The notes beneath the pieces were generated by a model. The model had not been told where the DNA came from, searched no databases, and saw nothing but the letters and a program-made list of their open reading frames with translations. From positions 649,698 to 713,697 of the forward strand of contig CAWKMU010000004.1 in NCBI GenBank assembly GCA_963850905.1: a DNA stretch of 64,000 nucleotides. The letters run 5' to 3'. Source of the stretch: an uncultured Gemmatimonadales bacterium. Its GTDB lineage: Bacteria > Gemmatimonadota > Gemmatimonadetes > Gemmatimonadales > Gemmatimonadaceae. Position 1 is the stretch's first letter, and each line of letters begins with the position of its first letter. Made by a program: the position numbers and the translations under genes. Positions 10,319-63,254 of the stretch are shown one piece after another.

Positions 10319-10380
10319 TCGGGGCTGCGTTGTTCGTTGTCGCTCCTCTCTATTGTGGCCCGCTGTGCGGGCCACAATCG
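10319..10380 (-). repeat. Copy A of the tRNA-Ile 3'-flank hairpin element
   Basis: 12-bp perfect stem attgtggcccgc-tgt-gcgggccacaat (10352-10378) with flank tcggggc..cgttgtt..tcgctcctctct matching 63135-63217. Confidence 0.75.
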
Positions 10381-11337
10381 TCACGCGCCGACAGCTAGAA
10401 GAGGATCACTCTTGTTGATCGCTAACGACGAGACGATAAAAAGAACCACGCCATCGCCCGGACTGACTGCTGTCTGGAGCACGCCCCCTTCGCAGTCCTT
10501 CACGCAGCCGAGGTTCTGACCGGTCTTTACGGCTTCATTCACCGCAACCGCCGGATACCAAAAGCCCGCATGGTCGCTGCGCAACCACATAAACCGTTCG
10601 AGCAGGGTGAACGGCACGGGCTCTGGAGCGCCGCCTGGAATCATCTTGAGGTAGCGCATGAGACGGTTGAGACCATTCGCATGCCATCGCACATCCTCGG
10701 GTGTCCAAATTCCCTGTCCGCCGGATTCCGTCAGGATGGATGGAATGCCTGCGACCGAAGCGGCGCGCACCGTCGACCCCAGCACCTCGCTGCCTACTAG
10801 AAAATGAATGCCGAAGATCTTGGCCATTTCCAGCGACATTTCATCGACATGGTTGTCGCCGGTGCGGGAGAAGATCGTGAACGGAACCAGCGCTTCGATC
10901 AAATCGCCGCCGTGCAAGTCCACATAACAAGTGGCCTGCCTGATGACGTTGCTGAACAGCCAATCGGCAATTTGTTCAGAGGCAGTGCCGTGCGGATTGC
11001 CCGGAAACACGCGATTCGGATTCTTGCCGTCGAGCGGACAGACGTAAATGGAACGCGCGGGAAACGCAGGCATATCCACGACCGGCACCACAATCACGCG
11101 CCCGCAAAGGCTTGCCGGATCGAGAGAGCGTCCTAGGTCGAGCGCCGCGGCGATACTGGCGTACTCCGCCGCGTGGACGCCGGCTGTCACCACGAGCGTC
11201 GGCCCTTCCCCGGCTCCATTGATGAGCCACATCGGAAGCCGGTACGGCCCGTCCTGCACCACAAATTCGTTGACGCCGTAACGTTTTTCCCCATGTCCGG
11301 CTGAAAGCGTACCGACGGTTAACACGTTCTTTGACAT
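10381..11337 (-). CDS. Succinylglutamate desuccinylase/aspartoacylase (M14-like) family protein
   Basis: AGVHAAEY, NPNRVFPG, DLHGGD zinc motifs; C-terminal hairpin domain; GAGGA RBS. Confidence 0.85.
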   Translation of the reverse strand: MSKNVLTVGTLSAGHGEKRYGVNEFVVQDGPYRLPMWLINGAGEGPTLVVTAGVHAAEYASIAAALDLGRSLDPASLCGRVIVVPVVDMPAFPARSIYVCPLDGKNPNRVFPGNPHGTASEQIADWLFSNVIRQATCYVDLHGGDLIEALVPFTIFSRTGDNHVDEMSLEMAKIFGIHFLVGSEVLGSTVRAASVAGIPSILTESGGQGIWTPEDVRWHANGLNRLMRYLKMIPGGAPEPVPFTLLERFMWLRSDHAGFWYPAVAVNEAVKTGQNLGCVKDCEGGVLQTAVSPGDGVVLFIVSSLAINKSDPLLAVGA

Positions 11338-11348
11338 CGTCGTGTTCC

Positions 11349-12701
11349 TCACCGTGCTCGATCAACGGCTAAGCTTCGTGAAGGAGTTGATGGCTCCGGC
11401 AATCGGCTGCGCTCAATCGTTATCGTTTCGAGCCCGTGCGGCGACGGCCCCGTTTCGACACGCCACAACACGTAGGCGACGAACACGGCGAGCACCGCTA
11501 TCCCGGTGAATGTGTACATGCTGGTATCGTAGCCTGCTGCGTTTGCGGCACTTGCCAGCCAGTGGTCGTTGGTCCAGCCGATCAGCAAGTTGATAATGAC
11601 CAGACCGAGCTGCTGCACCGAGTCCAACATTCCGTTGGCCAACCCCAGCCGCGGCCTGTCGACAACATACACAAGCGCCGGCCACATGACCGCCGGCACC
11701 AGCGCGAACGCCACACCCATCATGGCCATGGGGATGATAGGCTGGATGTTCGTGAACCCCAGTATGGGAAACGCCGGTACGAGTAGCAACGACCCAAACA
11801 TCATGAGCAGTGACCGGTGTCCGTACCGGTCGGCGAGTAGGCCGAAGACCGGCATGCCGATCAGCGAGAAAAAAGGTTCCATGCCCACCAGTAGAGATGC
11901 GGTTTGCGGTGAGACATGCCGAGCCTCGATCAGGAATTTCTGCCCGAAGGTTTCAAACGGGAAAATGCAACCGTAGAAGGTGAAACACAGCGCCGCAATC
12001 AGCCAGAATGAGCGATTAAAGCGGAACACTTCGCTCAAGGGGACCTTCGTCGTTCGGGCGCGATGTCCCAAAGTGAACCGCCGTTCACCGCGGGCATCGA
12101 GAATCCAGTAGACCGCAGCGCCGAGCAGGCAGAGTCCGCCAAAGGCCACGCCAAGAAGAAGAGGCCAGCGCCAATGAGTGTATGCGCGCGGCAACCAAGC
12201 CGGAGAGACTTGCGCGGTCAGCGAGCCCAATCGCCCAGCTGACGCGCGGACACCGAAGGCCAGACTCATTTCACTTGCGTAAAACCACCGCGCCACGGCG
12301 ACATTCGCCGCGATTGCGAGGGCCTCACCCCCCGAGCCGACGAGCAGACGGCCAACGGCCATGACAGCCAAACGAGGGCTCAGGGCCGTGATAACCAACC
12401 CAATGAACGTGAAGATGCCGAAAATCGACAGCGACTTCCGCGTTCCAATCCGGTCAACGATGACACCGCAGGCCAGCGCCATGACGATGTTGGGGAAGCT
12501 GTAGATGGCCTGCAGCAGGCCAATATCCGCGTTCGAAAAGTGGAGTTGGCGACTGAGCAGCGGCGCGAGCGGCCCGATGTAATCGAACGCGTAATAGCCG
12601 CCGTAACAGGCAATGCCAATCGCCACGAGGACAACCCAGCGCGAGGCACGCGATGGCTCGGGCTTCTGACGCACTTCCGCTTCGATCAAGGCGGCGCTCA
12701 T
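11349..12701 (-). CDS. MFS transporter (MFSD1-like)
   Basis: About 12 TM segments, GVIVDRIG and GLLADRYG motifs; overlaps the downstream deacylase ORF. Confidence 0.8.
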   Translation of the reverse strand: MSAALIEAEVRQKPEPSRASRWVVLVAIGIACYGGYYAFDYIGPLAPLLSRQLHFSNADIGLLQAIYSFPNIVMALACGVIVDRIGTRKSLSIFGIFTFIGLVITALSPRLAVMAVGRLLVGSGGEALAIAANVAVARWFYASEMSLAFGVRASAGRLGSLTAQVSPAWLPRAYTHWRWPLLLGVAFGGLCLLGAAVYWILDARGERRFTLGHRARTTKVPLSEVFRFNRSFWLIAALCFTFYGCIFPFETFGQKFLIEARHVSPQTASLLVGMEPFFSLIGMPVFGLLADRYGHRSLLMMFGSLLLVPAFPILGFTNIQPIIPMAMMGVAFALVPAVMWPALVYVVDRPRLGLANGMLDSVQQLGLVIINLLIGWTNDHWLASAANAAGYDTSMYTFTGIAVLAVFVAYVLWRVETGPSPHGLETITIERSRLPEPSTPSRSLAVDRAR

Positions 12702-12874
12702 TCTGAGGCGCGTATCGAGATGAGCGTCTCCACGCCTAGAGCATGACTATTTTGCTACCGCTCCGCAATGCTGACAGGGGGTGCGTGCTTGATCAACCCC
12801 TTTGCGCGCGCGCGACATCCGCGGCGGAGATGCCTTCCAATGCAAGGCCGTAGCCGACGCTTTCGTCGACGCCC

Positions 12875-13275
12875 TCAACCCTTGTTGATCTGGCGCACCT
12901 CTGGCAAGCGCCGCACGTCAGCCACGAAGCGCGCGAGCAACGGAGACCTGTTGTCCGTTCTCCAGGCGAGAGCCAGCAACTCCGGCGCGTTCAAATCAGC
13001 AACGGACATGATGACAACACTCGTTGGACGCCGCCAACGTGCCGTTCCAAGGACCCATCCAACCCCCAAGCCGGTCGCAACCAGACTGAGGATTGTGGCC
13101 TCGTCTAGTCCCTCCTGAACGACATGGGGGGACTTCAAGCCACCGCGAAGGCATGCCTGCGCTAGGCGGTCGTATAGCGCCGGCACTGCCCGTCTAGGAA
13201 AAGCGACAAACGGTGCGCCGACGAGGTCACGTAGGCGGAGTTCCTTGAGCTTGGTTAGAGGATGTCCTCTCGGGT
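12875..13275 (-). pseudogene. LysR substrate-binding domain C-terminal fragment
   Basis: PRGHPLTKLKELRLRDLVGAPFVAFPR...ILSLVATGLGVGWV...LALAWR; no HTH and no proper start. Confidence 0.75.
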
Positions 13276-13474
13276 CATCGGCGGGAAGCCGATCGCATTG
13301 GCCGAATTAGAACGCGATGACCGCAGCAAGCGGAGCGGCTGGGCACACTACTGCGTCAGCACGGCATAAGCTGTGCTGACGCCATCGTGTCTTCACTCGG
13401 CCTGACCGGTAAGCACCCATCTCAACGGTCGACCATCATGAGGCAAGCATCCGCGTACCTGACTCGCAACTAAA

Positions 13475-14446
13475 ATGACGATGCGCTCGTTCGCCGTCGA
13501 GCATTTTGGCGAAGCACCGGCGATCCACGCCCTACCGATCCCCGCCGCCGACGGCGCGTTCCTGATACGGGTGACGTACGCTGGGGTAAATCCGGTCGAC
13601 TACAAGAATCTCGACCACTTGACCGCCGCGTCGAGGTATCCATACGTCATGGGCGTCGACTTCGCCGGTGTCGTCGAACGCGTGCCGGTAGGAGCAGGGG
13701 ACGTCCACATCGGGGACCGTGTCCTCGGTCTGGCCCGCACACGCGGCTCGTACGCCGAGTACACCGCCGTCGCACCGGGTGTGAAGATAGAACCACTGGC
13801 CGGTATCCCCGACGGCGTCACTGACGAACAGGCGGCCGCGCTCCCGATGGCAGGAATAACTGCGCTGGGGTCGCTCGAACTATTGGGTATTGGTGCCGGA
13901 CAGCGCCTCGTCGTGATGGGCGCGACGGGCGGCGTCGGCGGCTACGCCGTGCAGATCGCACGCTCCCGCAAGGCGCACGTCATCGCGACTGTTCGTGGCG
14001 ACGTGGACGAAGCACGCCGGCTCGGCGCCGACGAAGTCTACGATACCAAAGTGGTCGACGTCATCGACGCGCTGCGGTCGACGCATCCCGAAGGCGTGGA
14101 CGCGGTCCTCGATCTCGTCAACGACTCGGACGCAATCCGCCGGGACGCTGAGATTCTCAAGTCCGGTGGAACCCTCGTCTCGGCCGTGATGGCGGCGGAC
14201 AGAGACTGGTTCGCCGGGCGTCACATTACGGCGCACAACATTGGCTCGAGCTCGCCGACCGATACCTCATTGGTCACGGCGAATCCCGCATCATCTCCGC
14301 AAGGGCTGACCCAGCTTGCGCGCATGGTCCACGACGGGACGATCACTGCGCGCATTGGCTCCGTGGTTGCATTGGAAGCCGCGGGTCAACTGCTCGCACA
14401 GCTTCGCACAGGCGGCATCCGCGGCAAGGCCATCATCCGCCTCTAA
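13475..14446 (+). CDS. NADP-dependent oxidoreductase (MDR/quinone reductase-like)
   Basis: AGVNPVD, GVDFAGVV, GATGGVG motifs. Confidence 0.9.
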   Translation: MTMRSFAVEHFGEAPAIHALPIPAADGAFLIRVTYAGVNPVDYKNLDHLTAASRYPYVMGVDFAGVVERVPVGAGDVHIGDRVLGLARTRGSYAEYTAVAPGVKIEPLAGIPDGVTDEQAAALPMAGITALGSLELLGIGAGQRLVVMGATGGVGGYAVQIARSRKAHVIATVRGDVDEARRLGADEVYDTKVVDVIDALRSTHPEGVDAVLDLVNDSDAIRRDAEILKSGGTLVSAVMAADRDWFAGRHITAHNIGSSSPTDTSLVTANPASSPQGLTQLARMVHDGTITARIGSVVALEAAGQLLAQLRTGGIRGKAIIRL

Positions 14447-14496
14447 GGCAGGCTAGCCACCACGATCGGACTCCGTGGCGAGGTCCACGGGCACCC

Positions 14497-14558
14497 TTGA
14501 CAAGGGCGTGGCGATTGCTGTATATAACTAACAGGTTGTAGAATCTATGGGTTATATA
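14497..14558 (+). promoter_or_regulatory. Sigma70-like promoter with probable ArsR operator
   Basis: TTGACA (14497-14502), 18 nt, TATATA; inverted repeat TATATAAC (14521-14528) ... GTTATATA (14551-14558) abutting the ArsR start. Confidence 0.6.
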
Positions 14559-14914
14559 TGACATTGTCTGACCGTTTGGATATCACATTCGCGGCGCTGG
14601 CCGATCCGACTCGGCGGGCGATTCTGGCGAAGCTAGCCTCTGGCGAGGCGTCCGTCAGCGAGCTGGCTCGACCGTTCGCGATGAGCCAGCCCGCGATCTC
14701 GAAGCATCTCAAGGTCCTCGAGCGTGCCGGGCTCGTCTCTGGTGCGCGCGACGCGCAACGCCGGCCGCGGCGCCTCGAAGGCGGTCGACTTGCAGAAGCT
14801 GCGCAATGGCTCGAGGGATATAGAAAGTTCTGGGAAGGTCGATTCCGCGAGTTGGACCTGGTTCTTGAGGAGCTCAAGGCCGCCGAGAAACGGCGGAAGC
14901 GTACGAAGCCCTAG
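14558..14914 (+). CDS. ArsR/SmtB family transcriptional regulator
   Basis: FAALADPTRRAIL...SQPAISKHLKVLERAGL. Confidence 0.92.
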   Translation: MTLSDRLDITFAALADPTRRAILAKLASGEASVSELARPFAMSQPAISKHLKVLERAGLVSGARDAQRRPRRLEGGRLAEAAQWLEGYRKFWEGRFRELDLVLEELKAAEKRRKRTKP

Positions 14915-14926
14915 CGAGGAGAAACG

Positions 14927-15484
14927 ATGGCGACGATTGGCAAGCTTACGGTGACAACGCAAGGCGAGCGGGAGGTCGCGATCACACGAGAGTTCGACGC
15001 GCCCCGTCACCTGGTGTTCGAGGCGCTGACCACGCCTGAATTGCTCAGGCGATGGCTGATTGGACCACCCGGTTGGGCCATGACCGAGTGCGAGGTCAAT
15101 GCAAGGGTAGGAGGTGCCTACCGGTACGCATGGCGCCACACGGACGGTTCGGCTATGGGGATGCGCGGCATCTGCACAGAGGTGGTTCCACCCGAGTTGC
15201 TCGTTGCGAAAGAGCGTTTCGATGAGGCGTGGTTCGAGCGTGCGCGTGGGGTGCAAGACGCAAAGCTCCTCGACAGTCTCCGCCCGGGTCTTGAACGCTT
15301 CGATCCCGGGGAAACAGTCGTGTCCCAAAGGCTTGCCGAGCGCGGCGGCAAGACCACGCTCAACATGACGATCCGGTACGACTCGCCGGAGACGCGCGAC
15401 ATGGCCTTGAAGACGCCGATGGCGAGGGGGATGGAAGCCGGGTATGGGAAGTTGGATGAGCTGCTTGCAGGGGTCAAAGTGTGA
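14927..15484 (+). CDS. SRPBCC/AHA1-like domain protein
   Basis: ITREFDAPRHLVFEALTTPELLRRW, VGGAYRYAW; usual partner of this ArsR type. Confidence 0.88.
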   Translation: MATIGKLTVTTQGEREVAITREFDAPRHLVFEALTTPELLRRWLIGPPGWAMTECEVNARVGGAYRYAWRHTDGSAMGMRGICTEVVPPELLVAKERFDEAWFERARGVQDAKLLDSLRPGLERFDPGETVVSQRLAERGGKTTLNMTIRYDSPETRDMALKTPMARGMEAGYGKLDELLAGVKV

Positions 15485-15606
15485 TGCTCGACGTTGGACG
15501 TTAGATGTTGAACATTGGACGTTGAATGTTTACCCGGTCCGAGGGTCAGCCACATCGACAGTGGTTGGCCCTCGAGCTTGCTCTCCAACGTCTAGCGTCA
15601 AACGTG
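15483..15606. repeat. Heptamer-armed long hairpin (GACGTTG-like x7, inner stem, inverted x3)
   Basis: Units gatgctc gacgttg gacgtta gatgttg aacattg gacgttg aatgttt; stem cgagggtcagccac/gtggttggccctcg; inverted units caacgtc tagcgtc aaacgtg. Confidence 0.8.
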
Positions 15607-15692
15607 TCAGAATCGGTTCCGGGCAACGCGGTGCGCCTCTCAGGCAGCGTGGCGGCCGCCGGCGCAAACCATCTAGTAGAGAGAGACTCGCC

Positions 15693-16301
15693 ATGAGAAA
15701 GATCAGGATCTGCGAACACATCTCGCTGGACGGCGTGATCTCGCCCGGCGGACGGGGCGAAGACAGCGACTTCGCGCATGGCGGATGGTCGGCACCGTAT
15801 CGAACTGCGGCCGGGGCAGAGGCCCTCGCCGAGGCACAGGGCAGGAGCTTCGATCTGCTGCTTGGCCGCCGCACCTACGATCTCTGGGCCGGCTTCTGGC
15901 CGAAGGTCAAGAGCGGTCCGTTCGCGGACGGTCTGAACGCCGCGACGAAATACGTCGCGACCCACAGGCCGGACAGCCTCGGATGGGGTCCGGTCGGGGA
16001 CCTGGGCGCGGACATCATGGAGGGTGTTCGCGGCGTCAAGTCAAAGGACGGCCCCGACCTGATCGTCTGGGGAAGTTCGACGCTGACGTCCGTGCTGCTC
16101 GAGCAGGGACTGGTCGACGAGGTTGTGCTGATCGTCTACCCGGTCTTGCTGGGCCGGGGCAAACGCTTCTTTTCGGACAGTGCCGACCCGCGCGAACTCG
16201 CTCTCGTCAGCACGAAGGCCACGCCCACGGGCGTGCTCATCAACACGTATCGACACGTTGGATCGCTGCGAAGCGAACCTGTCGCCGACGCGAGGCGTTG
16301 A
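15693..16301 (+). CDS. Dihydrofolate reductase-like (RibD C-terminal domain) protein
   Basis: ISLDGVI, LLLGRRTY, WGSSTL, LVDEVVLIVYPVLLGRGKRFF. Confidence 0.9.
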   Translation: MRKIRICEHISLDGVISPGGRGEDSDFAHGGWSAPYRTAAGAEALAEAQGRSFDLLLGRRTYDLWAGFWPKVKSGPFADGLNAATKYVATHRPDSLGWGPVGDLGADIMEGVRGVKSKDGPDLIVWGSSTLTSVLLEQGLVDEVVLIVYPVLLGRGKRFFSDSADPRELALVSTKATPTGVLINTYRHVGSLRSEPVADARR

Positions 16302-16356
16302 GCGGGCGCCCAAGTCGCGTAGGTTTGTTCGTCGATCGAGTCGGCGGTGCGCGAAC

Positions 16357-17619
16357 TCAGTCTCGCAATGCCCGCGCGCGGTCGAGGAGAAGGGTGCGTT
16401 CGCGCGCGTTCCGCGTCAGTGACGCTGCGCGCAGAAACTCCTGCTGGGCCTCTTCGCGGCGCCCCAACTTGGCGAGTAGGTCGCCGCGGACGCTGGGCAG
16501 CAGATGATAGTTGGCGAGTGAGGGCTCGGTGCTGAGGGCGTCGACCAGCTCCAGTCCCGTGGCCGGTCCAAACGCCATCCCAGCCGCGACCGCACGGTTG
16601 AGCTCCACTACCGGATTGGGCGTCACCTGTGCCAGCACATCGTAGAGTGCGACGATCCGGGGCCAGTCCGTTTCGCCGGGTGTCCCTGCCCTGGCGTGGC
16701 AGGCAGCGATCTCCGCCTGCAGCACGTACGGTCCACGTGGACGGTCGAGAGCCGATGCGCGCGCGAGCGCCGCCAACCCGCGGCGGATGAGCATCTGATC
16801 CCATCGACCGCGATCCTGGTCGAGCAGGAGAATCGGCTCCCCTTTCGGTCCGACTCGGGCCGCCGCGCGCGACGCCTGGATCTCCATCAACGCGACCAGT
16901 CCGTGCACCTCTGGCTCGCGCGGCAGAAGCTCCGCCAGCACGCGCCCTACCCGCAGCGCATCCTCGCACAGCGCTGGACGCATCCAGTCATCGCCCATGG
17001 TGGCCGAGTAGCCCTCGTTGAAGATGAGGTAGATCACCTCCAGCACGGATGAGAGCCGCATCGCCATCTCGTCGCCCCGCGGTACCTCGAACGACACGCG
17101 CGCCTCGCGCAGCGCACGTTTGGCCCGCACGATCCGTTGGGCGATCGTCGCCTCGGACGTGAGATACGCCCGCGCGATTTCCTCGGTCGTGAGTCCGCCC
17201 AGAAGACGGAGTGTGAGCGCTACGCGCGCCTCGCTCGATAACACGGGATGACAGGCGGTGAAGATGAGACGCAAAAGGTCATCCCCAATGTGATCGTCCA
17301 ATCGTTCATCGAGGTCCGGCGACGCGCCTTCGAGCTGCGATTCGAGCGTCGCATCGAGCGCGTCGTGTGTCCGATCGATTCGGGATGTCCGCCGCAGGGA
17401 GTCGATCGCGCGGTGCTTCGCCGTGGCCATGAGCCAGGCCCCGGGACTGTCCGGGATGCCGACCTCCGGCCAGCGCTCGAGCGCGGCGACGAGAGCATCC
17501 TGCGCGAGATCCTCAGCGATCCCGACGTCGCGCACGATCCTGGCGAGCCCGGCAATCAGTCGCGCCGACTCGATCCGCCAGACCGCCTCGATCGTGCGCC
17601 GAACGTCGGGTGTCGTCAC
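16357..17619 (-). CDS. ECF42-type RNA polymerase sigma factor with C-terminal TPR-like extension
   Basis: AEDLAQDALVAALERWP, DDLLRLIFTACHP, YLIFNEGY, TDWPRIVALY; GTGA overlap with YciI. Confidence 0.88.
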   Translation of the reverse strand: MTTPDVRRTIEAVWRIESARLIAGLARIVRDVGIAEDLAQDALVAALERWPEVGIPDSPGAWLMATAKHRAIDSLRRTSRIDRTHDALDATLESQLEGASPDLDERLDDHIGDDLLRLIFTACHPVLSSEARVALTLRLLGGLTTEEIARAYLTSEATIAQRIVRAKRALREARVSFEVPRGDEMAMRLSSVLEVIYLIFNEGYSATMGDDWMRPALCEDALRVGRVLAELLPREPEVHGLVALMEIQASRAAARVGPKGEPILLLDQDRGRWDQMLIRRGLAALARASALDRPRGPYVLQAEIAACHARAGTPGETDWPRIVALYDVLAQVTPNPVVELNRAVAAGMAFGPATGLELVDALSTEPSLANYHLLPSVRGDLLAKLGRREEAQQEFLRAASLTRNARERTLLLDRARALRD

Positions 17620-18047: not shown

Positions 18048-18106
18048 GGTCCGAATCCTCAGCTAGGGTCAGAGATCGGGGATCGGAAGCGCCCCCGTAT
18101 AGTGGC

Positions 18107-53707: not shown

Positions 53708-53718
53708 CGCGCTACTTT

Positions 53719-54366: not shown

Positions 54367-54421
54367 GCCTACGATTCGGACTGCTCGCCATCGCTGTCTG
54401 CGCGCATCCGCATTCGACCGG

Positions 54422-55295: not shown

Positions 55296-56798
55296 TCAGA
55301 GACCGGGGCGGATTTCACTAGGCTTTGCGCCCACCCGAGGAGAACGGCTCGCAACGTTCGCAACCCTTTCGTCAGTCCACTCCTGCTTCACTTCGCCGAG
55401 CAATTTCGTCAGATCCTTGATCTGAGCATCCTCGAGTGAGCGCACGGCATCCTTGATTTCCTGGAGCAGTTGCTCGTCGGCGTGGCCGGCCGCCAGCTTG
55501 TCGAGCTTCGCGTCAATGTCCTTCCACGTAAACGGCTGGGTCGCGAACCCGGGGTAATCCGACACCTCATGGCTAAACGACTTACCGCTCTTCAGCCGTA
55601 CCGTCACCCGGCTTGGAAAGCGGCTCGGATAGACGGCCGTGAAGGAATCGTCCGGTCTCACTGTGACCTTGCGGAGCAGGTTTTGCACGTCCGGCTTGTC
55701 AATCCGCCGCGGGTCGAGCTGCCCGGGCTGCACATCGCCATCAAGGAAGGCGACGGCAAGCAGGTAGGGCAGGCTGTGGTCAGCATCTTCCTTCGTCTGA
55801 ACGTTCGTCTTTGGACCGAAGCGTCCGCCACCGGTGAAGTCGTACGTGTCCTGGACAACGTCAGCCTCGATGCTCACGATCTGGCTCGGATCGAATGCCT
55901 GAGTCTTGCGCAACTCGAGCGCGCAGAAGATGGCGGATTGAGTAGGGACTGCGCTGTTGTAGCTCTTCAATGAGAGCCGGTCGAAACAATCCAGTTTCAC
56001 ACCGTCCCAGTCGACCTCGATCGACTGGCCGAGCGCGTACGCAATCCCGTCTGTCCCTTCGATCACATACTTTGGCCCGGTCACGCCGCGGGACGCCAGG
56101 AAGACAGCGTTGACGCACCCCAGCGCGATCTCGGCCGACGAGAGACCCTTCCATTGCGAGATCGGGGTTGTCCGCACAACCGTCAGAGGAATGCCATTGT
56201 CGCCGCAGATTTCGATTGCTGCCGCGCACTTTGTCTCGTCGAGCCCCAGTGCCTTCGACACACCCGCCCCTATTGAGAAGGCGAGCGGGGTTGTAAGGTC
56301 GAACCCGTGGGCCATCCATGGGGCGGCGTCAGTCAGTGTCGCATCGACCTGGTACGCGACCGCCAGCGCGATCAGGAAATCCTTACCCGAACCTCCGACA
56401 TGTTCGCAGGTGGCAAGGACCGCCCCCATGTTGTCCGACGGATGACAGAGCGTGCCATGCGAGAGGTAGCTGTCCATGAAATCGACGTAGCGAACCAGTG
56501 CCGTATTACCCAACGCGGCATACACGACATTGGCTTCCCCACCGCCGATCAGCGTGCAACGGGCGTCCGAATCGCCAAACTCCTTTGCCTGGGCTATGCA
56601 CGCTTCCGTCGGTCCTGCTCCCAAGGCGTTGATCGCGCACGCCAGGGAATCCAGGACGCTCACCTTGAGCCGCTCCCGCCGCTCAGGAGTGAGGTCCTCA
56701 TACGTCGCTCGACAGGCGAATTTCGCGATGCCCTCGGCCTGGCTCGGACCGCTGATGATGGCCTTGGGTTTCTGGGTGTCGCTCTCGGTCGAGGCCAT
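55296..56798 (-). CDS. MmgE/PrpD family protein
   Basis: VRYVDFMDSYL, CHPSDN, SQWKG, KEDADHSLPYLLA. Confidence 0.9.
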   Translation of the reverse strand: MASTESDTQKPKAIISGPSQAEGIAKFACRATYEDLTPERRERLKVSVLDSLACAINALGAGPTEACIAQAKEFGDSDARCTLIGGGEANVVYAALGNTALVRYVDFMDSYLSHGTLCHPSDNMGAVLATCEHVGGSGKDFLIALAVAYQVDATLTDAAPWMAHGFDLTTPLAFSIGAGVSKALGLDETKCAAAIEICGDNGIPLTVVRTTPISQWKGLSSAEIALGCVNAVFLASRGVTGPKYVIEGTDGIAYALGQSIEVDWDGVKLDCFDRLSLKSYNSAVPTQSAIFCALELRKTQAFDPSQIVSIEADVVQDTYDFTGGGRFGPKTNVQTKEDADHSLPYLLAVAFLDGDVQPGQLDPRRIDKPDVQNLLRKVTVRPDDSFTAVYPSRFPSRVTVRLKSGKSFSHEVSDYPGFATQPFTWKDIDAKLDKLAAGHADEQLLQEIKDAVRSLEDAQIKDLTKLLGEVKQEWTDERVANVASRSPRVGAKPSEIRPGL

Positions 56799-56983
56799 GG
56801 GTAATCCCTCGCTATTTGTAATCCGCTGGAAGATCCCGCGAACTGCCGACAGAATGTGCAGCAGGCATTGTCATCTCATTCAAATATCCCGATCGGCAGC
56901 ACAAAGGGCACCGCCGAAAGGATTCCCGCAAAATGCAATCCGTCATCCACCGCGAACATTGGTAACGGTTGCGAGTCCGAGAA

Positions 56984-57760
56984 ATGTCCCGCGTTTTTAT
57001 TACAGGGTCTACTGACGGAATCGGCCTCATGAGCGCCCGGCTTCTTCTCGAGCAGGGCCACCAGGTCGTGCTGCACGCACGCAGCGCGGCTCGTGCGGCC
57101 GATGCCCAGCGCAGCCTACCCTCTGCCGAAGCTGTGGTCGTGGGCGACCTTTCCAGCGTCGCTCAGGCGCGCGCCGTCGCCGAGCAAACGAACCGCCTGG
57201 GCCGTTTCGATTCAGTCATCCACAATGCCGGCGTGGGTTATCGGGAGCCACGCCGTATCCAGACAGAGGACGGTCTGCCGCACGTCTTCGCCGTAAACGT
57301 GCTCGCGCCCTACGTGCTGACAGCCCTGATCGAAAGGCCAAAGCGCATGGTATATCTGAGCTCTGGTATGCACCGAGGGGCCAACGCAAGTCTGGAGGAC
57401 GTCGAGTGGACGCAAAGACGTTGGCAGGGGGCGGAGGCCTACGCCGAAAGCAAACTGTGCGACGTGCTGCTGGCGTTTGCTGTGGCTCGGCGCTGGCCCG
57501 ATGTCCTTTCCAACGCACTGGAGCCAGGCTGGGTGCCAACTAAGATGGGTGGCCCCGGTGCCCCTGACGACATCGACCAGAGTCATCGAACCCAAGTGTG
57601 GCTTGCCGTGAGTAATGATCCTCAGGCATTGGTATCTGGGCGGTATTTCTATCACATGCATCAACGGGCGGCTGATCCTGCCGTTTACGACACAGCGCGA
57701 CAGAATCGATTGCTTGATATCTGCCGGCGGCTTTCAGACGTAGCTCTGCCAAACGGCTAA
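56984..57760 (+). CDS. SDR family oxidoreductase
   Basis: TGSTDGIG, HNAG, YAESK, PGWVPTKMGG. Confidence 0.9.
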   Translation: MSRVFITGSTDGIGLMSARLLLEQGHQVVLHARSAARAADAQRSLPSAEAVVVGDLSSVAQARAVAEQTNRLGRFDSVIHNAGVGYREPRRIQTEDGLPHVFAVNVLAPYVLTALIERPKRMVYLSSGMHRGANASLEDVEWTQRRWQGAEAYAESKLCDVLLAFAVARRWPDVLSNALEPGWVPTKMGGPGAPDDIDQSHRTQVWLAVSNDPQALVSGRYFYHMHQRAADPAVYDTARQNRLLDICRRLSDVALPNG

Positions 57761-58136
57761 AGGAAATTCGCGACAGAGCTCTCGTACCCACCCTGTCAAC
57801 ACACCGCGCTTGGACAGGCGGTAAGCGGCAAGCCGGTTGCGCTATGCGTTCGTCCTGTCGTCTGGACGACTCGCCGCACCGCGCGTGGTGGTGGTTCTTA
57901 TTTGCGGGAAGACGCCACGCTGGCCATCATAGCCCATGCTTGACACACTCGTTTGGGCAGGGGCTGCACTATCGGCTGGGGTCATCGGGATGTTCGTGTT
58001 CAAGGCTCCATTAACGAGACTGATCGATCGGACCAAGAGGGTAAACGACTCGGGTGGGAGGGAGGTGACGCGTGCGACGCGTCTGAGCCTGGGCCAGTGG
58101 GCGATGTCGACGCGGACGCGCGTTTGTTTGCAGGAG

Positions 58137-59159
58137 CTACCTGCTCTCGTCGTAGACCTCGTGGATCACGCTCACCAATGTATCGGGCTGATCAAACTCG
58201 ATATACTCCGAACTATTCGCCAAGAATATCTGTTTGGCGTTTGAGGACAGGTCCAACCAGCGCGCCTGCGCCAGGGCGATCTGGTGTTGGTACTCGAGCT
58301 CCTTCGGATCCGGGGTGTGGCTGCCCGGCAAGAAGTGAACACCGTGATTGCCCGTCGTCACCACTCGCACCGGACGCGAGCCGAGTGATCGGCGATGCTG
58401 CTGGAGCCATGCCTCATCCCACGGCACTTGCTCCATCTCGGAGATGTATGCGTCATACATCGCGACCTTGGTCTGCGCTATCCGCAGCAGCGTCGCGTTT
58501 AATTCTGAGGACCACTCGGACTCCGGTAGGCCGCGGAAGAATTGCTGGGCGCACGTGCGATCGGGCTGGCCGGGACGCGAGGGCAGCAGCGGTAGCGGCT
58601 TGCCCGCGGCGACCGCCTCACGGCAGTCGCGCAACCGAGCGGCGATCCTCGCGTCTCCCAGGTCGTCGGCATTCTGCATCGCCTGTGGTTCGACGTCGCT
58701 GGCGTCGGCTTCGGCGAGCACGAGCCCCGCGACATCCGGCGTGAAGAGATCGGCAAACGTGCGGGCAGGGTCACCCCCGAAGGCGTTGCCGACGAGGATG
58801 TACGGGCCTGCAATACCCGCATTCCGCAGCGCGCTGTGCAGCTCGGCGGCGATACGCACGCTCGTCCGCGGCATTGGACCTGCCCCGCTGAACCCCGCGC
58901 CAGCGCGGTCGTAAGCGCAGGCCCGCGTCCACTTCGCGACTCGTGGCTGCACGACCGCCCACGCGGGCGCCCAATCCTCCCACCCCGATTCGAAGATGAC
59001 GGTGGGCGAACCACTCCCCATGCAGTAGAGGCTCAGTCGCGCTCCGTCCGCCGCGACGGCAATTCGCCCGGGGCGGGTGTAGACCTCATCGCCGGGAGCT
59101 TCTCTCATCTGCATGCTGAGGAACAAGCAGGCGGTCAGTGCAGGCACGTGCAATCTCAT
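58137..59159 (-). CDS. Secreted alpha/beta hydrolase-fold protein
   Basis: CMGSGSPTVIFESG, CAYDRAGAGFS, GNAFGG in place of GHSxGG. Confidence 0.85.
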   Translation of the reverse strand: MRLHVPALTACLFLSMQMREAPGDEVYTRPGRIAVAADGARLSLYCMGSGSPTVIFESGWEDWAPAWAVVQPRVAKWTRACAYDRAGAGFSGAGPMPRTSVRIAAELHSALRNAGIAGPYILVGNAFGGDPARTFADLFTPDVAGLVLAEADASDVEPQAMQNADDLGDARIAARLRDCREAVAAGKPLPLLPSRPGQPDRTCAQQFFRGLPESEWSSELNATLLRIAQTKVAMYDAYISEMEQVPWDEAWLQQHRRSLGSRPVRVVTTGNHGVHFLPGSHTPDPKELEYQHQIALAQARWLDLSSNAKQIFLANSSEYIEFDQPDTLVSVIHEVYDESR

Positions 59160-59200
59160 GTTGGAACCTCCAGAACGTGGACCACAGGGGCAGCTCGCAT

Positions 59201-60136
59201 TCACGGCAGCGTCCGGGCGACGCGGAAGCCCATGATGGCGTCCCGAAACTCTGCAGGATTGCGTTCTCGGGTGGCCGGTCGCAGCAGCCACGCCGGAAAC
59301 ATCCACGAGCTGCCGCGATCAACGCGGAGGCAATTGCCGTGGCCGTCCTTCGCCTTGGGGTCGCTCGAAGGGGTCTCGTTCGCGCGCCCGTCGGCGGGAA
59401 TGCCGGCGTAGCTGTTGTCGTAACAGTCCTCGGTCCACTGCCACACGTTCCCTGCCATGTCGTACAGGCCGAACGCATTCGGCGGCTTCGCGCCCACCGG
59501 ATGTGTCTGGCCATGGTCGCAAAAAAGACCTTCCACTTTTTCGCAGCCGGAGTTGGCATTGAACGAGGCGTGGACCGGCGCGGCAGCGTCGTCATCGCCC
59601 CAGTAGAACTTGGTTGTCGTTCCGGCGCGTGCGGCATATTCCCACTCCGCTTCGCTGGGCAGCCGATAAGGCCCGTCTGCTGAGGCCGCGCCGCCACAAT
59701 GCGCCTTGCGGTTCAACCACGTGATGTAGGCTCCTGCATCGTGCCAGCTCACGCATACGACTGGATCACGGTCAGTCTGCGCATGGCCAGGATTTTCCCA
59801 AGTCATCTTCGGATCCTTCTCCCATTTGAAGATGGCGCGGCCGCTGCCGCAACCATCACCGGCCGGGTAGCCCGTCTCCCGAGCAAATGCCGCGTACTCG
59901 CCACGAGTGACGTCATACTTGCCCAGGGCAAATGAAGGCAATGAGACCTGATGTTGCGGGGCTTCATCAGCAACCGCGCCCATACTGCCACCGTGACTCG
60001 CGGCCCAGGATTTCTCCTCGGCTGATGAGCCCATGGTGAAGCTGCCACCGGGGAGAACGACCATCTCCAAAATGTCCCCGCTCAATGGCGCCAATCTCGT
60101 CTTGCCATCCCAGCATTTCTGCGACTCAGGTGACAC
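59201..60136 (-). CDS. Formylglycine-generating enzyme (SUMF1/FGE-sulfatase) domain protein
   Basis: FTMGS, PVVCVSW, RLPSEAEWEYAARAG, NAFGLYDMAGNVWQW, GFRVA; start uncertain. Confidence 0.88.
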   Translation of the reverse strand: MSPESQKCWDGKTRLAPLSGDILEMVVLPGGSFTMGSSAEEKSWAASHGGSMGAVADEAPQHQVSLPSFALGKYDVTRGEYAAFARETGYPAGDGCGSGRAIFKWEKDPKMTWENPGHAQTDRDPVVCVSWHDAGAYITWLNRKAHCGGAASADGPYRLPSEAEWEYAARAGTTTKFYWGDDDAAAPVHASFNANSGCEKVEGLFCDHGQTHPVGAKPPNAFGLYDMAGNVWQWTEDCYDNSYAGIPADGRANETPSSDPKAKDGHGNCLRVDRGSSWMFPAWLLRPATRERNPAEFRDAIMGFRVARTLP

Positions 60137-60220
60137 GTTTGGGCACGGTCGCGAAGCGACTGCACGCTATCGGCGGTCTCGTCAACGCGCCATACACGCG
60201 GGATGTGGCGCCCGAGCGGC

Positions 60221-60253
60221 GTGATTTCCTGCCCTTCTCGTGTGATTTCCTGC
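60221..60253 (-). promoter_or_regulatory. Direct repeat GCAGGAAATCAC x2, 21-bp period (putative LytTR site)
   Basis: gtgatttcctgc at 60221-60232 and 60242-60253, upstream of the FGE gene. Confidence 0.7.
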
Positions 60254-60266
60254 GGCCCTGCGGCCG

Positions 60267-61043
60267 CTATCGCTCGGCTCGGAGCAACCGACGAAGGGCG
60301 GGTTGATAGAAGCGGCTCGAGACGATCTTCGTCCCACTGCGGAGCTGCACGAGGAACGTCGTCTTTCCATAGCGTTCCAAGGTTCCAACCGCGCAGATGT
60401 TCACGATGGCGGAGCGGCGGACTCGGACGAAGGTGTCGCGTCCGCTGAGCCGCTGGGCAACGCGATCCATCGTTGTGCGCATGAGGTATGTGCGACCTCC
60501 CGAGTGGACTCGCACGTGGTTGCCGGCACTTTCGAACCAGTCGATCTGTCCGACGTCGAGCAGCGCGAGCCGATCCCTGTCGCGAACCACAAAGCGCTCG
60601 GCGGGCGGTGGGGCGACAGGCTCCGTCGCTGGACGCTGCGCGAGCACACCTTCCAGTCGGTCCGCGAGCGAGGCTCCCCGTTTCAAGGCAAGCAGCGATC
60701 CGGCCCGTTCGATCGCCTCCTGAAGCCGGACGGGGTCGACGGGCTTGAGTACGTAATCGAGCGCGTGCACTTCAAACGCCTTCACGGCGTGCCGGTCGTA
60801 CGCGGTCACGAACACAACGAGTGGCATCGCATCGAGCCCGATCTCCTCGATGATCGCGAACGCGGTTCCTCGTCCTAGCTGGATGTCGAGGAGTACGAGA
60901 TCCGGCCGCTGCTCGACGATCGCGACGACGGCGTCGGCGAGGCCCCCGCATTCTCCGACGCAGGCCACGCCGGGCAGCTGCGCTAGCTGTCGCCGCAGCC
61001 CTCGGCGTGCCACCAGCTCATCGTCGACAATGAGCACCCTCAC
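60267..61043 (-). CDS. LytTR family response regulator
   Basis: LIVDDE, LLDIQL, FVTAYD, DYVLKP receiver; SAGNHV, FVRVRRSAIVN LytTR domain. Confidence 0.93.
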   Translation of the reverse strand: MRVLIVDDELVARRGLRRQLAQLPGVACVGECGGLADAVVAIVEQRPDLVLLDIQLGRGTAFAIIEEIGLDAMPLVVFVTAYDRHAVKAFEVHALDYVLKPVDPVRLQEAIERAGSLLALKRGASLADRLEGVLAQRPATEPVAPPPAERFVVRDRDRLALLDVGQIDWFESAGNHVRVHSGGRTYLMRTTMDRVAQRLSGRDTFVRVRRSAIVNICAVGTLERYGKTTFLVQLRSGTKIVSSRFYQPALRRLLRAER

Positions 61044-62200
61044 GCCGACATCTCTTGGAACGGAAGGCGAACGTCGACCCTGGTCCCCGGCGCATCGGCT
61101 GAGTCCCCCAGTGGGGCGAGCGCCACCGTGGCCCCAGCTCCGTACAGGTGCCGCAGTCGGGCGCGCGTGTTGCGCAGTCCCACGCCCTCTCGCGCGGGCG
61201 CGCCACCCTCGATCCCGGAACCGTCATCCTCGACGGCGATATGCAAAACGTCCAGCTCCCGACGGGCACGCAGGCCGATCGTGGTACGCCGATCGCCTGA
61301 GGTGCCGTGCTCAAAAGCGTTTTCCAGGAGAGGTTGCAGCAGGAACACCGGGACACGCGCATTCATGACCCGTGGGTCCACCGCAAGGGTGACCGTCAGC
61401 TGCTCGCCGAAACGCCCTCGCTGGATGTCGAGATAGTCGCTCGCGAACGCCAACTCCTGTCGGAACGAGATCTCGTGCGCTTCTTCGTCCAGACTGCGGC
61501 GGAGCAGCGTCGAGAGCCTCAGGAGCATCTGCTGCGCCTTCGCGGCATCCTCGGTCATGAAAACCGAAATGGTATTCAACGTGTTGAAGAGGAAGTGCGG
61601 CCTGAGCTGCGATCGCAGCGTGTCGAGCTTCGACTGAGTGAGCTCCGTTTCGAGCGCCGACGCACTGCTGCGATAACGGAGCGCCGTGGAAACCATGACG
61701 ATTACGGCGTACAGGACCAGCCCGGCAAACAGTCCCCACACGAAAGCGGCGAGCCGGGAGCACGGTGCGGACCATACGGTGTGGAAACCACCGCTCAGGC
61801 CCGGAAGTTGGACCTCGCAACGGACGGGCGCGACTGCAGCCCGCGGCGCTGCGGCCTCACGGAGGACGCCGCCCGTGCTCCAAAGAGATAGCGCCACGGC
61901 TTGCAAACCTGTTGTGATCAGGTTGTGGACCGTCGCCAGGGTGATAGCGATGGTCGCGTGCGCGAAGAGAGGACGGTACGCCGGCTTCGCCTCGAGCGGC
62001 CAGCGACGCGCAGCCACAAGCACGACGGGCGTGAGAACGCCCCAAACCGCCCAGAACTCCAGCCCATTCCAAATGTCCCGGAGCGTGTCGACCGAGTGTC
62101 CTCGAGCGAGATCCATGCTGACCTCTTGCGCCGTGAAGAAGATCCCCACGACGAGTACCAGCGCGACAACGCGGGAGGTTCGCATGGCGTCAGACACCAT
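61040..62200 (-). CDS. LytS/YehU-type sensor histidine kinase
   Basis: TM helices, LRSQLRPHFLFNTLN, LQPLLENA, GVGLRN. Confidence 0.92.
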   Translation of the reverse strand: MVSDAMRTSRVVALVLVVGIFFTAQEVSMDLARGHSVDTLRDIWNGLEFWAVWGVLTPVVLVAARRWPLEAKPAYRPLFAHATIAITLATVHNLITTGLQAVALSLWSTGGVLREAAAPRAAVAPVRCEVQLPGLSGGFHTVWSAPCSRLAAFVWGLFAGLVLYAVIVMVSTALRYRSSASALETELTQSKLDTLRSQLRPHFLFNTLNTISVFMTEDAAKAQQMLLRLSTLLRRSLDEEAHEISFRQELAFASDYLDIQRGRFGEQLTVTLAVDPRVMNARVPVFLLQPLLENAFEHGTSGDRRTTIGLRARRELDVLHIAVEDDGSGIEGGAPAREGVGLRNTRARLRHLYGAGATVALAPLGDSADAPGTRVDVRLPFQEMSA

Positions 62201-62239
62201 GCGTAATCATGGATCCCGCCGTTCGGAGCGGCAATGGGT

Positions 62240-62272
62240 GCAACAAATCACCGAAAGGGGGCAGGAAATCAC
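62240..62272 (+). promoter_or_regulatory. Direct repeat GCAACAAATCAC/GCAGGAAATCAC, 21-bp period (putative LytTR site)
   Basis: Units at 62240-62251 and 62261-62272; same motif and spacing as 60221-60253. Confidence 0.7.
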
Positions 62273-62469
62273 GACGACATGTCCGAGGATGTGCGCCGCT
62301 GAGGCTGCGAAGCCTCTTCCGTTCTCTCATCGTTAGAATCGCGTCAGTCCTATCCACGCGCTCCCTGATCCTCCGTGGCTTAGCGGCCGCCGGTGATTAT
62401 CATCGGGGTACTACCGTGTCGATCCATAGAGCTGAGGACGGACACTCGCCCCCGACTTGACCGGAAAAC

Positions 62470-62880
62470 ATGCTCAAGAAGCGGAGCCACATGACAGCGG
62501 TCGCACCTGAAGAGCTCGGCCAAAGCGCCAATGACGCGGAACTGTCGCGCCTCAATCGTGACTACGTTCGCGCTGTTGAAGAACGGGACCCGCACTGGTT
62601 CAATGAACACCTGGCAGAGGACTTCACGAACACGTATGTGGATGGCACCTTCGCTGATCGCGCTGAGTTCATTGAGCGAGTCGCGCGTGATTCAGGTCTC
62701 TCGAACCGTCGACTGCTAGAAGTCGCGATCCGACGGATGGGTGACTTTGCAATCATTCACGCACGTACGATTTCCAATACGTCCTCCGGAGCGGAAGTAC
62801 TCACGCGTTATACCGACATCTGGGCGCGCCGTGACGGTCGGTGGGTCTGCGTGAGCGCACAACTGACGCGTAGCACCTGA
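62470..62880 (+). CDS. NTF2-like/DUF4440 protein
   Basis: LNRDYVRA, LAEDF, GDFAIIHART, RYTDIWARRDGRWVCVSAQ. Confidence 0.88.
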   Translation: MLKKRSHMTAVAPEELGQSANDAELSRLNRDYVRAVEERDPHWFNEHLAEDFTNTYVDGTFADRAEFIERVARDSGLSNRRLLEVAIRRMGDFAIIHARTISNTSSGAEVLTRYTDIWARRDGRWVCVSAQLTRST

Positions 62881-62979
62881 TTCGATTCACCGCTTCCGCG
62901 TGGACGCCCGGTGGGCTGACGCCTCCCCGGCGCCGGCGCCGCGAATTGCGGTATGTGGCGTTCCGGGCTGCTCTCCCAG

Positions 62980-63036
62980 ATCACCAAACACGACGCTCTT
63001 CTGGTACACCAGGAGCTTCTCGAAGGCGAACGGCAC
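62980..63036 (-). pseudogene. N-terminal stub of a four-helix-bundle (23S rRNA IVP-like) protein
   Basis: GTG-PFAFEKLLVYQKSVVFGD, after which similarity is lost. Confidence 0.6.
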
Positions 63037-63074
63037 GCTCCCATTCTGATTTTCTGCGTCAGCCAAGCGTCAGG

Positions 63075-63176
63075 GCAGAAAGCAGAAAGTAGAAAGTAGA
63101 CCGAGTAGCGCGGCCCCGTGGCGCTTTACCGCCATCGGGGCCCGTTGTTGCTTCTCGTCTACTTTCTACTTTCCGT
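63075..63176. repeat. Heptamer-armed long hairpin (GYAGAAA units, inner stem, inverted TTTCTAC)
   Basis: gcagaaa gcagaaa gtagaaa gtagac ... ggccccgtggcg/cgccatcggggcc ... gtctac tttctac tttcc. Confidence 0.8.
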
Positions 63177-63211
63177 TTCGCTACTCTCTATTTGGCCGCT
63201 CCGCGGACAAA

Positions 63212-63254
63212 TAGGCCTGGGTAGAGTTGAACTACCGACCTCACGCTTATCAGG
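63212..63254 (-). pseudogene. 3' half of tRNA-Ile(GAU); att-like remnant
   Basis: Reverse complement cCTGATAAgcgtgaggtc-ggtag-TTCAACT-ctacc-caggcct-a gives anticodon loop, T arm and acceptor 3' strand; the 5' half is degenerate and cannot pair. Confidence 0.88.

Follow-up and report, generated by a model that had tools for sequence, protein, structure and literature searches.

The window lies in a variable region behind tRNA-Ile

The window, the whole stretch of 64,000 nucleotides analysed here, lies on contig C4 of genome G000 and is the middle part of a variable region of about 275 kb behind tRNA-Ile. Nearly all of it is cargo, encoding transporters, hydrolases, dehydrogenases, regulators and a sugar-use cluster. 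Close to its end lies a 3′ half of tRNA-Ile(GAT), followed on the minus strand by a hairpin, an inverted ladder of heptamers and the stub of a four-helix-bundle gene (copy C); two shorter copies, A and B, lie within the cargo (Table 1). We found no integrase, transposase or phage families among 51 window proteins scanned, saw no relaxase or conjugation genes among the proteins scanned, and detected no intact tRNA in the window with ARAGORN. In a self-comparison only the module described below and a few paralogous pieces recur, and we therefore rejected a whole-unit tandem duplication.

The G000 assembly is 82% complete and includes alternative haplotype contigs, and we compared it with relatives labelled G001, G002, G004, G009, G020 and G050, among others. 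The end of C4 coincides with the site in contig C3 where an IS30-type element begins; G001 reads through this join site without the element, and G004 is colinear over the entire C4–C3 region, in support of the join. The junction with C3 lies about 58 kb past the end of the window; C3 carries the intact tRNA-Ile, seven further 3′ halves and a tyrosine-recombinase element. The block with a YCII gene next to C is 92% like C3 13708–14733 and 97% like G001. Contigs of four sequencing runs cover most of positions 61500–64000 and show no joints there, and none of them bridges C with 31 letters on each side.

Table 1. Features of the window and of contig C3 (window positions unless C3 is given).
Feature	Position	Strand	Remarks
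Cargo genes	1..62984	.	
Block shared with G004	137..2695	.	82%; other order in G004, where it starts at a 5′-eroded module copy; edge set by hand
Block shared with G004	2824..3627	.	93%; start 2 nt from hairpin edge in G004
Block shared with G004	4976..10239	.	91%; start 2 nt from hairpin edge in G004
A, hairpin-only, internally deleted module copy	10319..10378	-	hairpin 10352-10378, 12-bp perfect stem
Block shared with G004	10381..12780	.	93%; start 3 nt from hairpin A
Block shared with G004	16356..18240	.	84%; start 4 nt from hairpin edge in G004
B, hairpin-only module copy	26660..26721	-	hairpin 26690-26716, 12-bp perfect stem
Block shared with G004	26719..28748	.	97%; start 3 nt from hairpin B
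Four-helix-bundle / 23S_rRNA_IVP gene 5′ stub at C	62985..63036	-	about 16 codons
Inverted heptamer ladder at C	63062..63189	-	AGAAAGT/ACTTTCT type, around inner hairpin
C hairpin	63190..63212	-	10-bp stem, 1 mismatch, GGA loop, directly behind tRNA end
C tRNA half	63212..63254	-	43-nt 3′ half of tRNA-Ile(GAT) with 1 mismatch, from the anticodon loop to the discriminator base
YCII-gene block	63255..64000	+	fused directly to C's tRNA half; contig end is the IS30-type insertion site
Intact four-helix-bundle gene	C3 37208-37720		89 bits vs 33.8 (PF05635); 88.2 vs 24 (TIGR02436)
Proximal 8.7-kb element	C3 63990-72744		tyrosine recombinase, Rep, same arm word at both ends

Copies A, B and C differ in kind

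The initial annotation had noted three same-orientation copies of a tRNA-Ile flank. These are real: a 15-nt flank pattern matches the window exactly three times, at 10340, 26678 and 63178, always on the plus strand, and matched in 0 of 100 shuffles. The "tcggggc..cgttgtt" letters that A was said to share match the module's inner part. The copies differ in kind, with C consisting of a tRNA half plus flank and A and B being hairpin-only. The tRNA half at C, the most distal of eight tRNA-Ile 3′ halves, is an att-type scar without integrase arm repeats, none of which appeared beside it in an arm scan, and a 201-nt region at its ladder folds at z = -7.3. A and B are identical at 35 of 39 positions, differing in one flank base and an inverted 3-nt loop. 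Both score closest to a tRNA-Pro-attached copy rather than an Ile-attached one; the Ile copy of G009, outside this comparison, also has that hairpin.

Measured to the hairpin edge, A comes 2 nt after the stop codon of an AstE/AspA-family gene and B 6 nt after that of an M61 peptidase gene; the 1–2 nt distance from a minus-strand stop reported for both thus holds for A alone. Instead of a tRNA portion shrinking gradually from C to B to A, we found a step: this portion measures 43 nt at C, drops to 5 nt at B, where it agrees with the variant tRNA end of C, and is 0 nt, beyond the shared hairpin A, at copy A, which carries no tRNA remnant. Nor do these three sites alone divide the window, since about 290 kb hold 15 copies in the same orientation, these three included, and 15 more HMM matches lie elsewhere in the genome.

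A tandem tRNA-Ile array and an integrase element lie on C3

The search beyond position 64000 proposed earlier turned up both of its targets on C3: an intact minus-strand tRNA-Ile(GAT) at 72745–72818, the only one detected in the genome, and an adjacent tyrosine recombinase. Stacking behind tRNA-Ile is likewise borne out by a tandem array of eight 3′ halves (seven on C3, plus C), which are 43–47 nt long and all co-oriented with the intact tRNA; the module follows six of them. Two traits of an additive tRNA island are thereby present: the target tRNA stands intact at one end, ahead of 3′ fragments in its own orientation, and an integrase-carrying element bounded by att repeats lies proximally. 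In this element Rep (PF23343) scores over its cut-off and the integrase match (PF00589, E 1e-4) below it; the G004 integrase passes the PF00589 cut-off (E 1e-12). Arm-type direct repeats of at least 7 nt at one fixed distance accompany 5 of 7 C3 halves, compared with 20 of 5000 random positions, and are absent at C. The arm words are of at least three different kinds, which implies several integrase types.

Genome searches with PF00589 and PF07508 found no integrase relics between the halves or in the window. A tblastn search with the genome's four own recombinases found none there either, and was insensitive, as it also missed the G004 integrase. G004 repeats the pattern, with five halves (four with the module) and hairpin-only copies further out. 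Arrays with no module match exist as well: G050 has six halves within 20 kb, and G020 has several.

The repeated unit is a module with its own distribution

Three parts make up the module: the hairpin, the ladder of inverted heptamers and a gene of the four-helix-bundle family (PF05635). A tRNA precedes it in 55 of 80 related loci, and it is found also behind tRNA-Pro, -Leu, -Asn and -Trp and behind stop codons of core genes; it is thus a separate unit and not the tRNA-derived dispersed element that had been suggested. Directly behind the intact tRNA-Ile, it is the native flank in G002 and G009. It also moves on its own: a copy at ychF-rpsF in G000, with the same stop+2 spacing as A, is present in 0 of 5 relatives, and one intergenic site holds the module in opposite orientations in G000 and G004. 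The initial annotation had allowed for the hairpin being a genome-wide repeat unlinked to tRNA-Ile. A sister hairpin-plus-ladder type is indeed dispersed genome-wide, and 15 of 30 matches to an HMM seeded mostly from Ile-flank copies lie outside the Ile flank; of the strict-motif copies in G000, 11 of 15 lie inside it. The dispersed intergenic hairpins near stop codons resemble REP/REPIN elements in this respect, and the one PF01797 match (C3, 875 kb) has no module HMM match nearby.

Six core-linked or neighbouring module copies are only 72–91% alike, as expected if donors differ. The stems vary yet stay paired in 63 of 80 loci, and of 48 three-base loops 21 are GNA, while 9 have the reverse form. 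Its structure is likely the reason why the hairpin is maintained, and the form that matters is probably single-stranded DNA. The module spans phyla (57–81% protein identity), and some distant loci (L084, L097) have a second hairpin, with a short tRNA-Pro end, downstream of the gene. All four PF05635 matches in G000 fall within the tRNA-Ile array, and most gene copies here are stubs. The intact C3 protein exceeds both curated cut-offs of the PF05635/TIGR02436 family (Xcc0516, PDB 2gsc) and matches PDB 2gsc at E 5e-9; we found no catalytic domain in it. Unlike 23S_rRNA_IVP genes, this gene lies behind a tRNA and hairpin-ladder module, not inside 23S rRNA, with both ladder arms upstream.

Several known categories were rejected. 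None of the three hairpins was called as an intrinsic terminator, and whichever strand is read, the T run comes before the stem. A diversity-generating retroelement (DGR) was set aside, with no reverse transcriptase (PF00078) in the 82%-complete G000. Rfam Gut-1 (RF01706), compared as a related repeat (PMC2864571), gave no covariance-model match at E up to 1 in six module loci, where Rfam returned only tRNAs and sub-threshold microRNA-type matches. Among mainly openly accessible main texts, we found no paper that describes this module downstream of tRNAs or that reports arrays of tRNA-Ile in Gemmatimonadota.

Some synteny breaks coincide with hairpin edges

Synteny had been proposed to break at 10380 and 26722. 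Against G004 the breaks are exact at A and B, both of which are absent at the same joints there. In the closer relative G001, which shares B, synteny runs unbroken through it. Among G000–G004 blocks, 9 of 50 ends lie at most 12 nt from a hairpin edge, one of them with a hand-set edge; none of the 50 opposite ends does (Fisher p 0.003). The intervals between the copies, taken earlier for single islands of about 16 kb and 36 kb, are each a mosaic of several blocks, and we found no integrase remnants in them. Positions 8001–28000 gave single-gene matches only in five further genus members. In the pairwise comparison with G004, variability is highest near the tRNA and falls outward, so that the proximal 90 kb shares hardly any blocks, those of the window are shuffled, and the sequence beyond is nearly colinear.

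All eight hairpin-only copies on C4 above 495 kb have the orientation of the tRNA, while genes there are split 102 plus to 90 minus (p 0.002); because all of this flank is on a single replichore, insertion could also be strand-biased there. Among 18 hairpin-only copies from Ile flanks, nine match 3–7 nt of the tRNA-Ile end, versus 0 of 9 outside, a count that includes two orthologous pairs and accepted C's variant end, chosen post hoc after C. The other nine Ile-flank copies have no tRNA match, and behind tRNA-Pro 0 of 5 match 3 nt of the Pro end.

Discussion

Our analysis suggests that the window region was, on balance, probably built by repeated integrase-driven additions, with the module marking joints as re-imported native tRNA flank. 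The module would stand at many joints because it is the normal tRNA flank in the genus, likely re-imported with each donor's DNA. In the mechanism that we infer, visiting elements would excise imprecisely, carrying donor flank and cargo, and would integrate at the recipient tRNA; precise excision would then leave flank and cargo behind, and each addition would push the old flank outward. An excision-with-flank model is stated for tRNA islands in 10.1101/2020.12.28.424599. C is the scar predicted by this model: a complete 3′ half that lacks arm repeats and is joined to DNA of ordinary chromosomal type. Hairpin-only copies with a 3–7 nt tRNA end, such as B, are likely flanks that were displaced and became joined through short homology with the end of the tRNA, and stop+2 copies without tRNA bases, such as A, may be free module insertions that later became rearrangement joints. 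We observed no excision circle, whole-unit empty site or imprecisely excised element. An anticodon-loop integrase by itself leaves joints at the tRNA's last bases unexplained.

The layout resembles that of Prochlorococcus tycheposon islands (10.1101/2020.12.28.424599): an island behind a tRNA, a proximal integrase element with partial tRNAs further in, mostly non-element DNA, and variability peaking near the tRNA. Unlike in those islands, the donor flank here is a recognisable conserved module, so that joints stay marked after the tRNA half is lost. Tandem accretion of IMEs, ICEs and CIMEs at tRNA 3′ ends (PMC5704250) shares serial site-specific integration, integrase-less att-bounded units and different integrases with one target; most units here differ in starting with a host-type module rather than the element's own left arm. 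A CIME retains both its attL and its attR arm after losing the integrase; here, right arms are kept in 5 of 7 C3 halves, left ends are mostly host-type module and the window intervals lack arms. In Methylopumilus fGI-2, recurring tRNA 3′-end repeats likewise delimit cassettes of variable size; these are 20-nt tRNA-Lys repeats (PMC10872708), compared with our 43–47-nt tRNA-Ile halves plus hairpin module, and hairpin-only copies. Intergenic heptamer repeats of Xanthomonas and Nostoc share heptamer units, inverted pairs and closeness to stop codons, but the unit here is different and free of G-runs, and those repeats go with increased stability while ours sit at breakpoints; PMC4692102, which describes those repeats, gave no match for "tRNA" or "four helix". 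Compared with an integron, the intervals here are multi-gene (2.6–60 kb) and the sole tyrosine recombinase of the region lies inside its own element.

We weighed these data against the idea that two unrelated processes overlap: the tRNA halves would be an att array of the usual sort, and the hairpin-only copies, A and B among them, would be REP/MITE-like elements that inserted freely behind stops, are tolerated in a variable region and later cause adjacent deletions or recombine with each other. The polymorphic ychF-rpsF copy with its A-like spacing, the opposite orientations at one site, the genome-wide sister type and the nearness of A and B to a Pro-attached copy all fit this account, as does the preference of heptamer repeats elsewhere for the 50 bp behind stop codons (PMC4692102). 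We nevertheless consider it unlikely, since strict-motif copies in G000 concentrate in the Ile flank, with two more behind tRNA-Pro; in G004, 9 of 11 hairpin-including matches lie in Ile and Pro flanks, eight of them co-oriented (40 of 129 candidates scored); the orientation of hairpin-only copies is independent of gene strand; and tRNA-Ile ends of 3–7 nt are confined to Ile-flank copies.

A more active role for the module seems improbable. Here the four-helix-bundle protein and hairpin would provide integron-like or one-ended mobility, joining incoming DNA to the 5′ base of hairpins at the ends of tRNAs and genes, without a tyrosine recombinase. This would suit the precise 5′ hairpin edge, with remnants of 0–7 nt or about 40–47 nt and none between, together with the paired stems, the GNA excess, the cross-phylum spread, the confinement of PF05635 matches to the array and the second hairpins at L084 and L097; DGR target hairpins also have GRA loops, and DGRs carry Avd (PMC4372165). 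The missing catalytic domain, the prevalence of stubs, the absence of a reverse transcriptase, the module-free arrays of G020 and G050 and the multi-gene mosaic intervals, which are not single-gene cassettes, argue against it. Comparably doubtful is the broader proposal of a cross-phylum mobility system, in which an Avd-like protein, acting on a DNA hairpin with a GNA loop at the 3′ ends of tRNAs and genes, would capture and reshuffle multi-gene cargo at the hairpin's 5′ base, integron-like without an integrase, with the tRNA-Ile and -Pro flanks of the genus as its cassette arrays. Homology-facilitated illegitimate recombination, in which DNA from relatives would be anchored by homology on the tRNA and the conserved genes and fused by microhomology, at its opposite end, at or just past the recipient tRNA end, predicts what we see in the lack of joints inside the tRNA, short homologies, variable ladder and gene truncation, diverged copies and missing integrases, and is known in three naturally competent species (PMC2884548). 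We regard it as highly unlikely: ComEC (PF03772) was found in 0 of 10 genus genomes, four of them at least 90% complete, versus 10 of 14 controls, so that DNA would need another entry route, and integrases do act in this region, as shown by the arm repeats found at most halves.

An additive tRNA island of the Prochlorococcus/CIME type with re-imported donor flanks is therefore the best reading and one that we hold to be somewhat probable, and the hairpin copies likely record additions even where no tRNA fragment remains. The donor-flank growth model of tRNA islands is hard to test because such DNA is usually unmarked. With a conserved, diverging module as donor flank, each addition would leave a tick mark that can be counted and dated, here in a phylum that has received little study. 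Through the module, a four-helix-bundle family of unknown function, its heptamer ladders and a hairpin conserved in structure stand exactly where rearranged segments meet, and this position sets up a concrete test of whether the module is a passenger or a recombination signal.

Copies A, B and C belong to an array behind tRNA-Ile

A 15-nt flank pattern matched the window three times, always on the plus strand, and never in 100 shuffles, confirming the three co-oriented flank-element copies of the initial annotation. Its claim that A and B lie 1-2 nt from a minus-strand stop codon holds for A (2 nt) but not for B (6 nt), and the tRNA portion said to shrink from C to B to A measures 43, 5 and 0 nt, A retaining nothing beyond its hairpin's own A.

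The final 1 kb of the window is 92% similar to C3 13708-14733 (C3 being the contig with the intact tRNA-Ile), and the window's own contig, C4, stops with the window, where an IS30-type element begins on C3. In the relative G001 this site lacks the IS and continues into the sequence that follows the IS on C3; a contig from run X2 continues likewise, and with the relative G004 colinearity holds from C4 480 kb across the window as far as tRNA-Ile and the genes past it. Together these place the intact minus-strand tRNA-Ile predicted beyond position 64000 ~58 kb past the window, and the tyrosine recombinase also predicted there is in the 8.7-kb element nearest to it. The first 14.7 kb of C3, which contain many broken frames, would then likely be an alternative haplotype. 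Of the IS30-type element there are at least four near-identical copies, two of which lie at contig ends or close to them. The small contigs C1, C2 and C5, in which 80-97% patches of C4 590-710 kb recur, may represent strain variants of the island.

Features of the array and of related loci
Feature	Location	Observation
Copy A	window 10319-10378	perfect 12-bp stem; 35/39 identical to B
Copy B	window 26660-26721	perfect 12-bp stem; tRNA remnant matches C's end
Copy C	window 63190-63254	10-bp stem, one mismatch; then tRNA-Ile(GAT) 3' half, one mismatch to the single tRNA-Ile detected in the genome
YCII genes	near window 17305-18140, 63302-63820	inverted paralogues, upstream DNA in common, 82-83% alike
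SDR/TetR and SDR pieces	window 52902-54392, 56958-57780	90-98% identical copies in array: C3 24441-25931, C3 7043-7865, C1
Fragment, presumably alanine-racemase C-terminus	window 63870-64000; C3 16206 onward	split by IS30-type element
Further 3' halves (seven)	C3 17466, 35207, 37806, 41260, 46624, 52320, 63947	all co-oriented
Intact tRNA-Ile	C3 72745-72818	
Small units between halves	L002:15254-17200; L003:1493-2170	mainly toxin-antitoxin-type pairs (DUF433/DUF5615, HTH pair, nucleotidyltransferase/HepT)
ychF-rpsF spacer	L014:9319-9460; L158, L159, L161	
tRNA-Asn(GTT), 232-nt intron	C3 2004270-2004574; L062:7538-7842 (G004)	weak group I intron match (22 bits, under gathering score); module copy behind
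tRNA-Pro(GGG) string	L015/L016, C3 2045-2064 kb; L059-L060 (G004)	second run of co-oriented hairpin-only copies; one shared block ends at hairpin edge in G004; C6 (L013) resembles alternative haplotype

By its content, the 8.7-kb unit is a typical integrative element: it encodes a 452-aa tyrosine recombinase (PF00589 score below cut-off), a Rep protein (PF23343, above cut-off) and small HTH proteins, and has the same arm word at each end. Direct repeats of at least 7 nt at one fixed distance, such as form integrase arm sites, flank 5/7 C3 halves versus 20 of 5000 random positions. The C3 halves use three different arm words; a fourth, imperfect one also occurs in the proximal integrase element of G004. 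No such repeat was found at C. Elsewhere in the order, tRNA-Ile arrays comprise five halves in G004, six in G050 (within the 20 kb fetched) and several in G020, and our query matched in 53 of 61 genomes, mostly through the tRNA itself.

A hairpin-ladder module lies behind tRNAs and moves by itself

Behind six of the eight halves we found a module of hairpin, heptamer ladder, inner hairpin, inverted ladder and four-helix-bundle gene. The gene is intact in one copy (PF05635 and TIGR02436 over cut-off; PDB 2gsc, E 5e-9) and truncated in the others, to a 16-codon stub at C; all four PF05635 matches of the genome sit in the tRNA-Ile array. Intact tRNA-Ile has the module immediately behind it in G002 and G009, as has tRNA-Pro in the source genome, G002 and G004, and tRNA-Leu in G002. 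In G009, the TetR-SDR piece comes immediately after tRNA-Ile plus a cut module. We compared 80 related gene loci, mostly from Planctomycetota. A tRNA on the same strand ends no more than 400 nt upstream in 55 of them, and 63, not all independent, have a hairpin whose stem varies yet stays paired. In four Planctomycetota loci (L137, L140, L143, L145), conserved arm-like sequence and ~11 nt of the tRNA-Pro end precede the module, a pattern that suggests integrases using the tRNA 3' end.

Among 48 three-base loops from these non-independent loci, 21 are GNA and nine its reverse form. In DNA, GNA triloops have very high stability, a hint that the hairpin may have a role as single-stranded DNA. We dropped a terminator reading, as the hairpins are not terminator-like, and an Rfam search of the module matched no family.

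The module moves by itself: a copy lies behind the ychF stop in the source genome and in 0/5 relatives, two of which carry another heptamer repeat there. Different repeats share the ychF-rpsF spacer as a hotspot: G001 and G004 carry a heptamer ladder of another kind there (in G004 together with an IS), and G003 a REP-like pair. A sister type with hairpin and ladder is dispersed across the genome. Heptamer repeats behind stop codons are already described (PMC4692102), and PMC5524665 only lists the four-helix-bundle gene. In our literature search, no paper described this module as following tRNAs or sitting at the joints of islands.

Hairpin copies occur in and outside the tRNA-Ile flank, some at synteny breaks

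Of the matches to an HMM whose seed was mainly flank copies, 30 extend to the hairpin end; the Ile flank (0.29 Mb) has 15 of them and the remaining 4.2 Mb the other 15. A stricter motif gave 15, of which 11 lie in the Ile flank, two behind tRNA-Pro and two elsewhere. In G004, 9/11 hairpin-containing matches fall in the Ile and tRNA-Pro flanks (40 of 129 candidates scored). On C4 beyond 495 kb, all eight hairpin-only copies (lacking the full half) are co-oriented with the tRNA, versus 102 plus- and 90 minus-strand genes (p 0.002). Accepting C's variant end and counting two orthologous pairs, 9/18 Ile-flank hairpin-only copies share 3-7 nt with the end of tRNA-Ile versus 0/9 outside; the other nine have no match, none retains 8-36 nt, and 0/5 Pro-flank copies match the Pro end.

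Of 50 blocks in common with G004, nine start at most 12 nt from a hairpin edge in one or other genome (one edge set by hand) and none ends there (p 0.003). Six of the seven window blocks belong to these nine, including the blocks that start at A and B, where synteny had been predicted to break. Block order differs in G004, and G001 has B plus an extra module copy within the 36-kb interval, so that the 16- and 36-kb intervals are mosaics rather than the single islands first proposed.

A probable explanation of the array: repeated import of donor flanks

Serial integration at tRNAs is already known. The best fit to these sequences is the published additive-island model (10.1101/2020.12.28.424599) combined with the stacking of decayed units by tandem accretion (PMC5704250). 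An element would excise imprecisely, taking donor flank along, integrate at the recipient tRNA and later excise precisely, leaving that flank behind. As the donor flank here would be the module, each cycle would import a new copy. Such re-import would explain why module copies are merely 72-91% alike, why gene truncation varies, why the cargo is metabolic and without integrases, and why C has a full half without arms. Joints at the last tRNA bases would need a 3'-end-type integrase or short-homology deletion.

Copy A rather resembles a free insertion at stop+2, like the ychF copy; that the module inserted freely throughout, we consider rather unlikely. It is improbable that the module drives accretion: G020 and G050 have arrays without it, which argues that it is a marker, not a requirement. 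Homology-facilitated illegitimate recombination is highly improbable, ComEC occurring in 0/10 genus genomes. We infer every movement step from static sequence. The addition made by this locus is evidence across genomes that copies of the module, whether or not a tRNA remnant is kept, mark the breakpoints of an accretion island.
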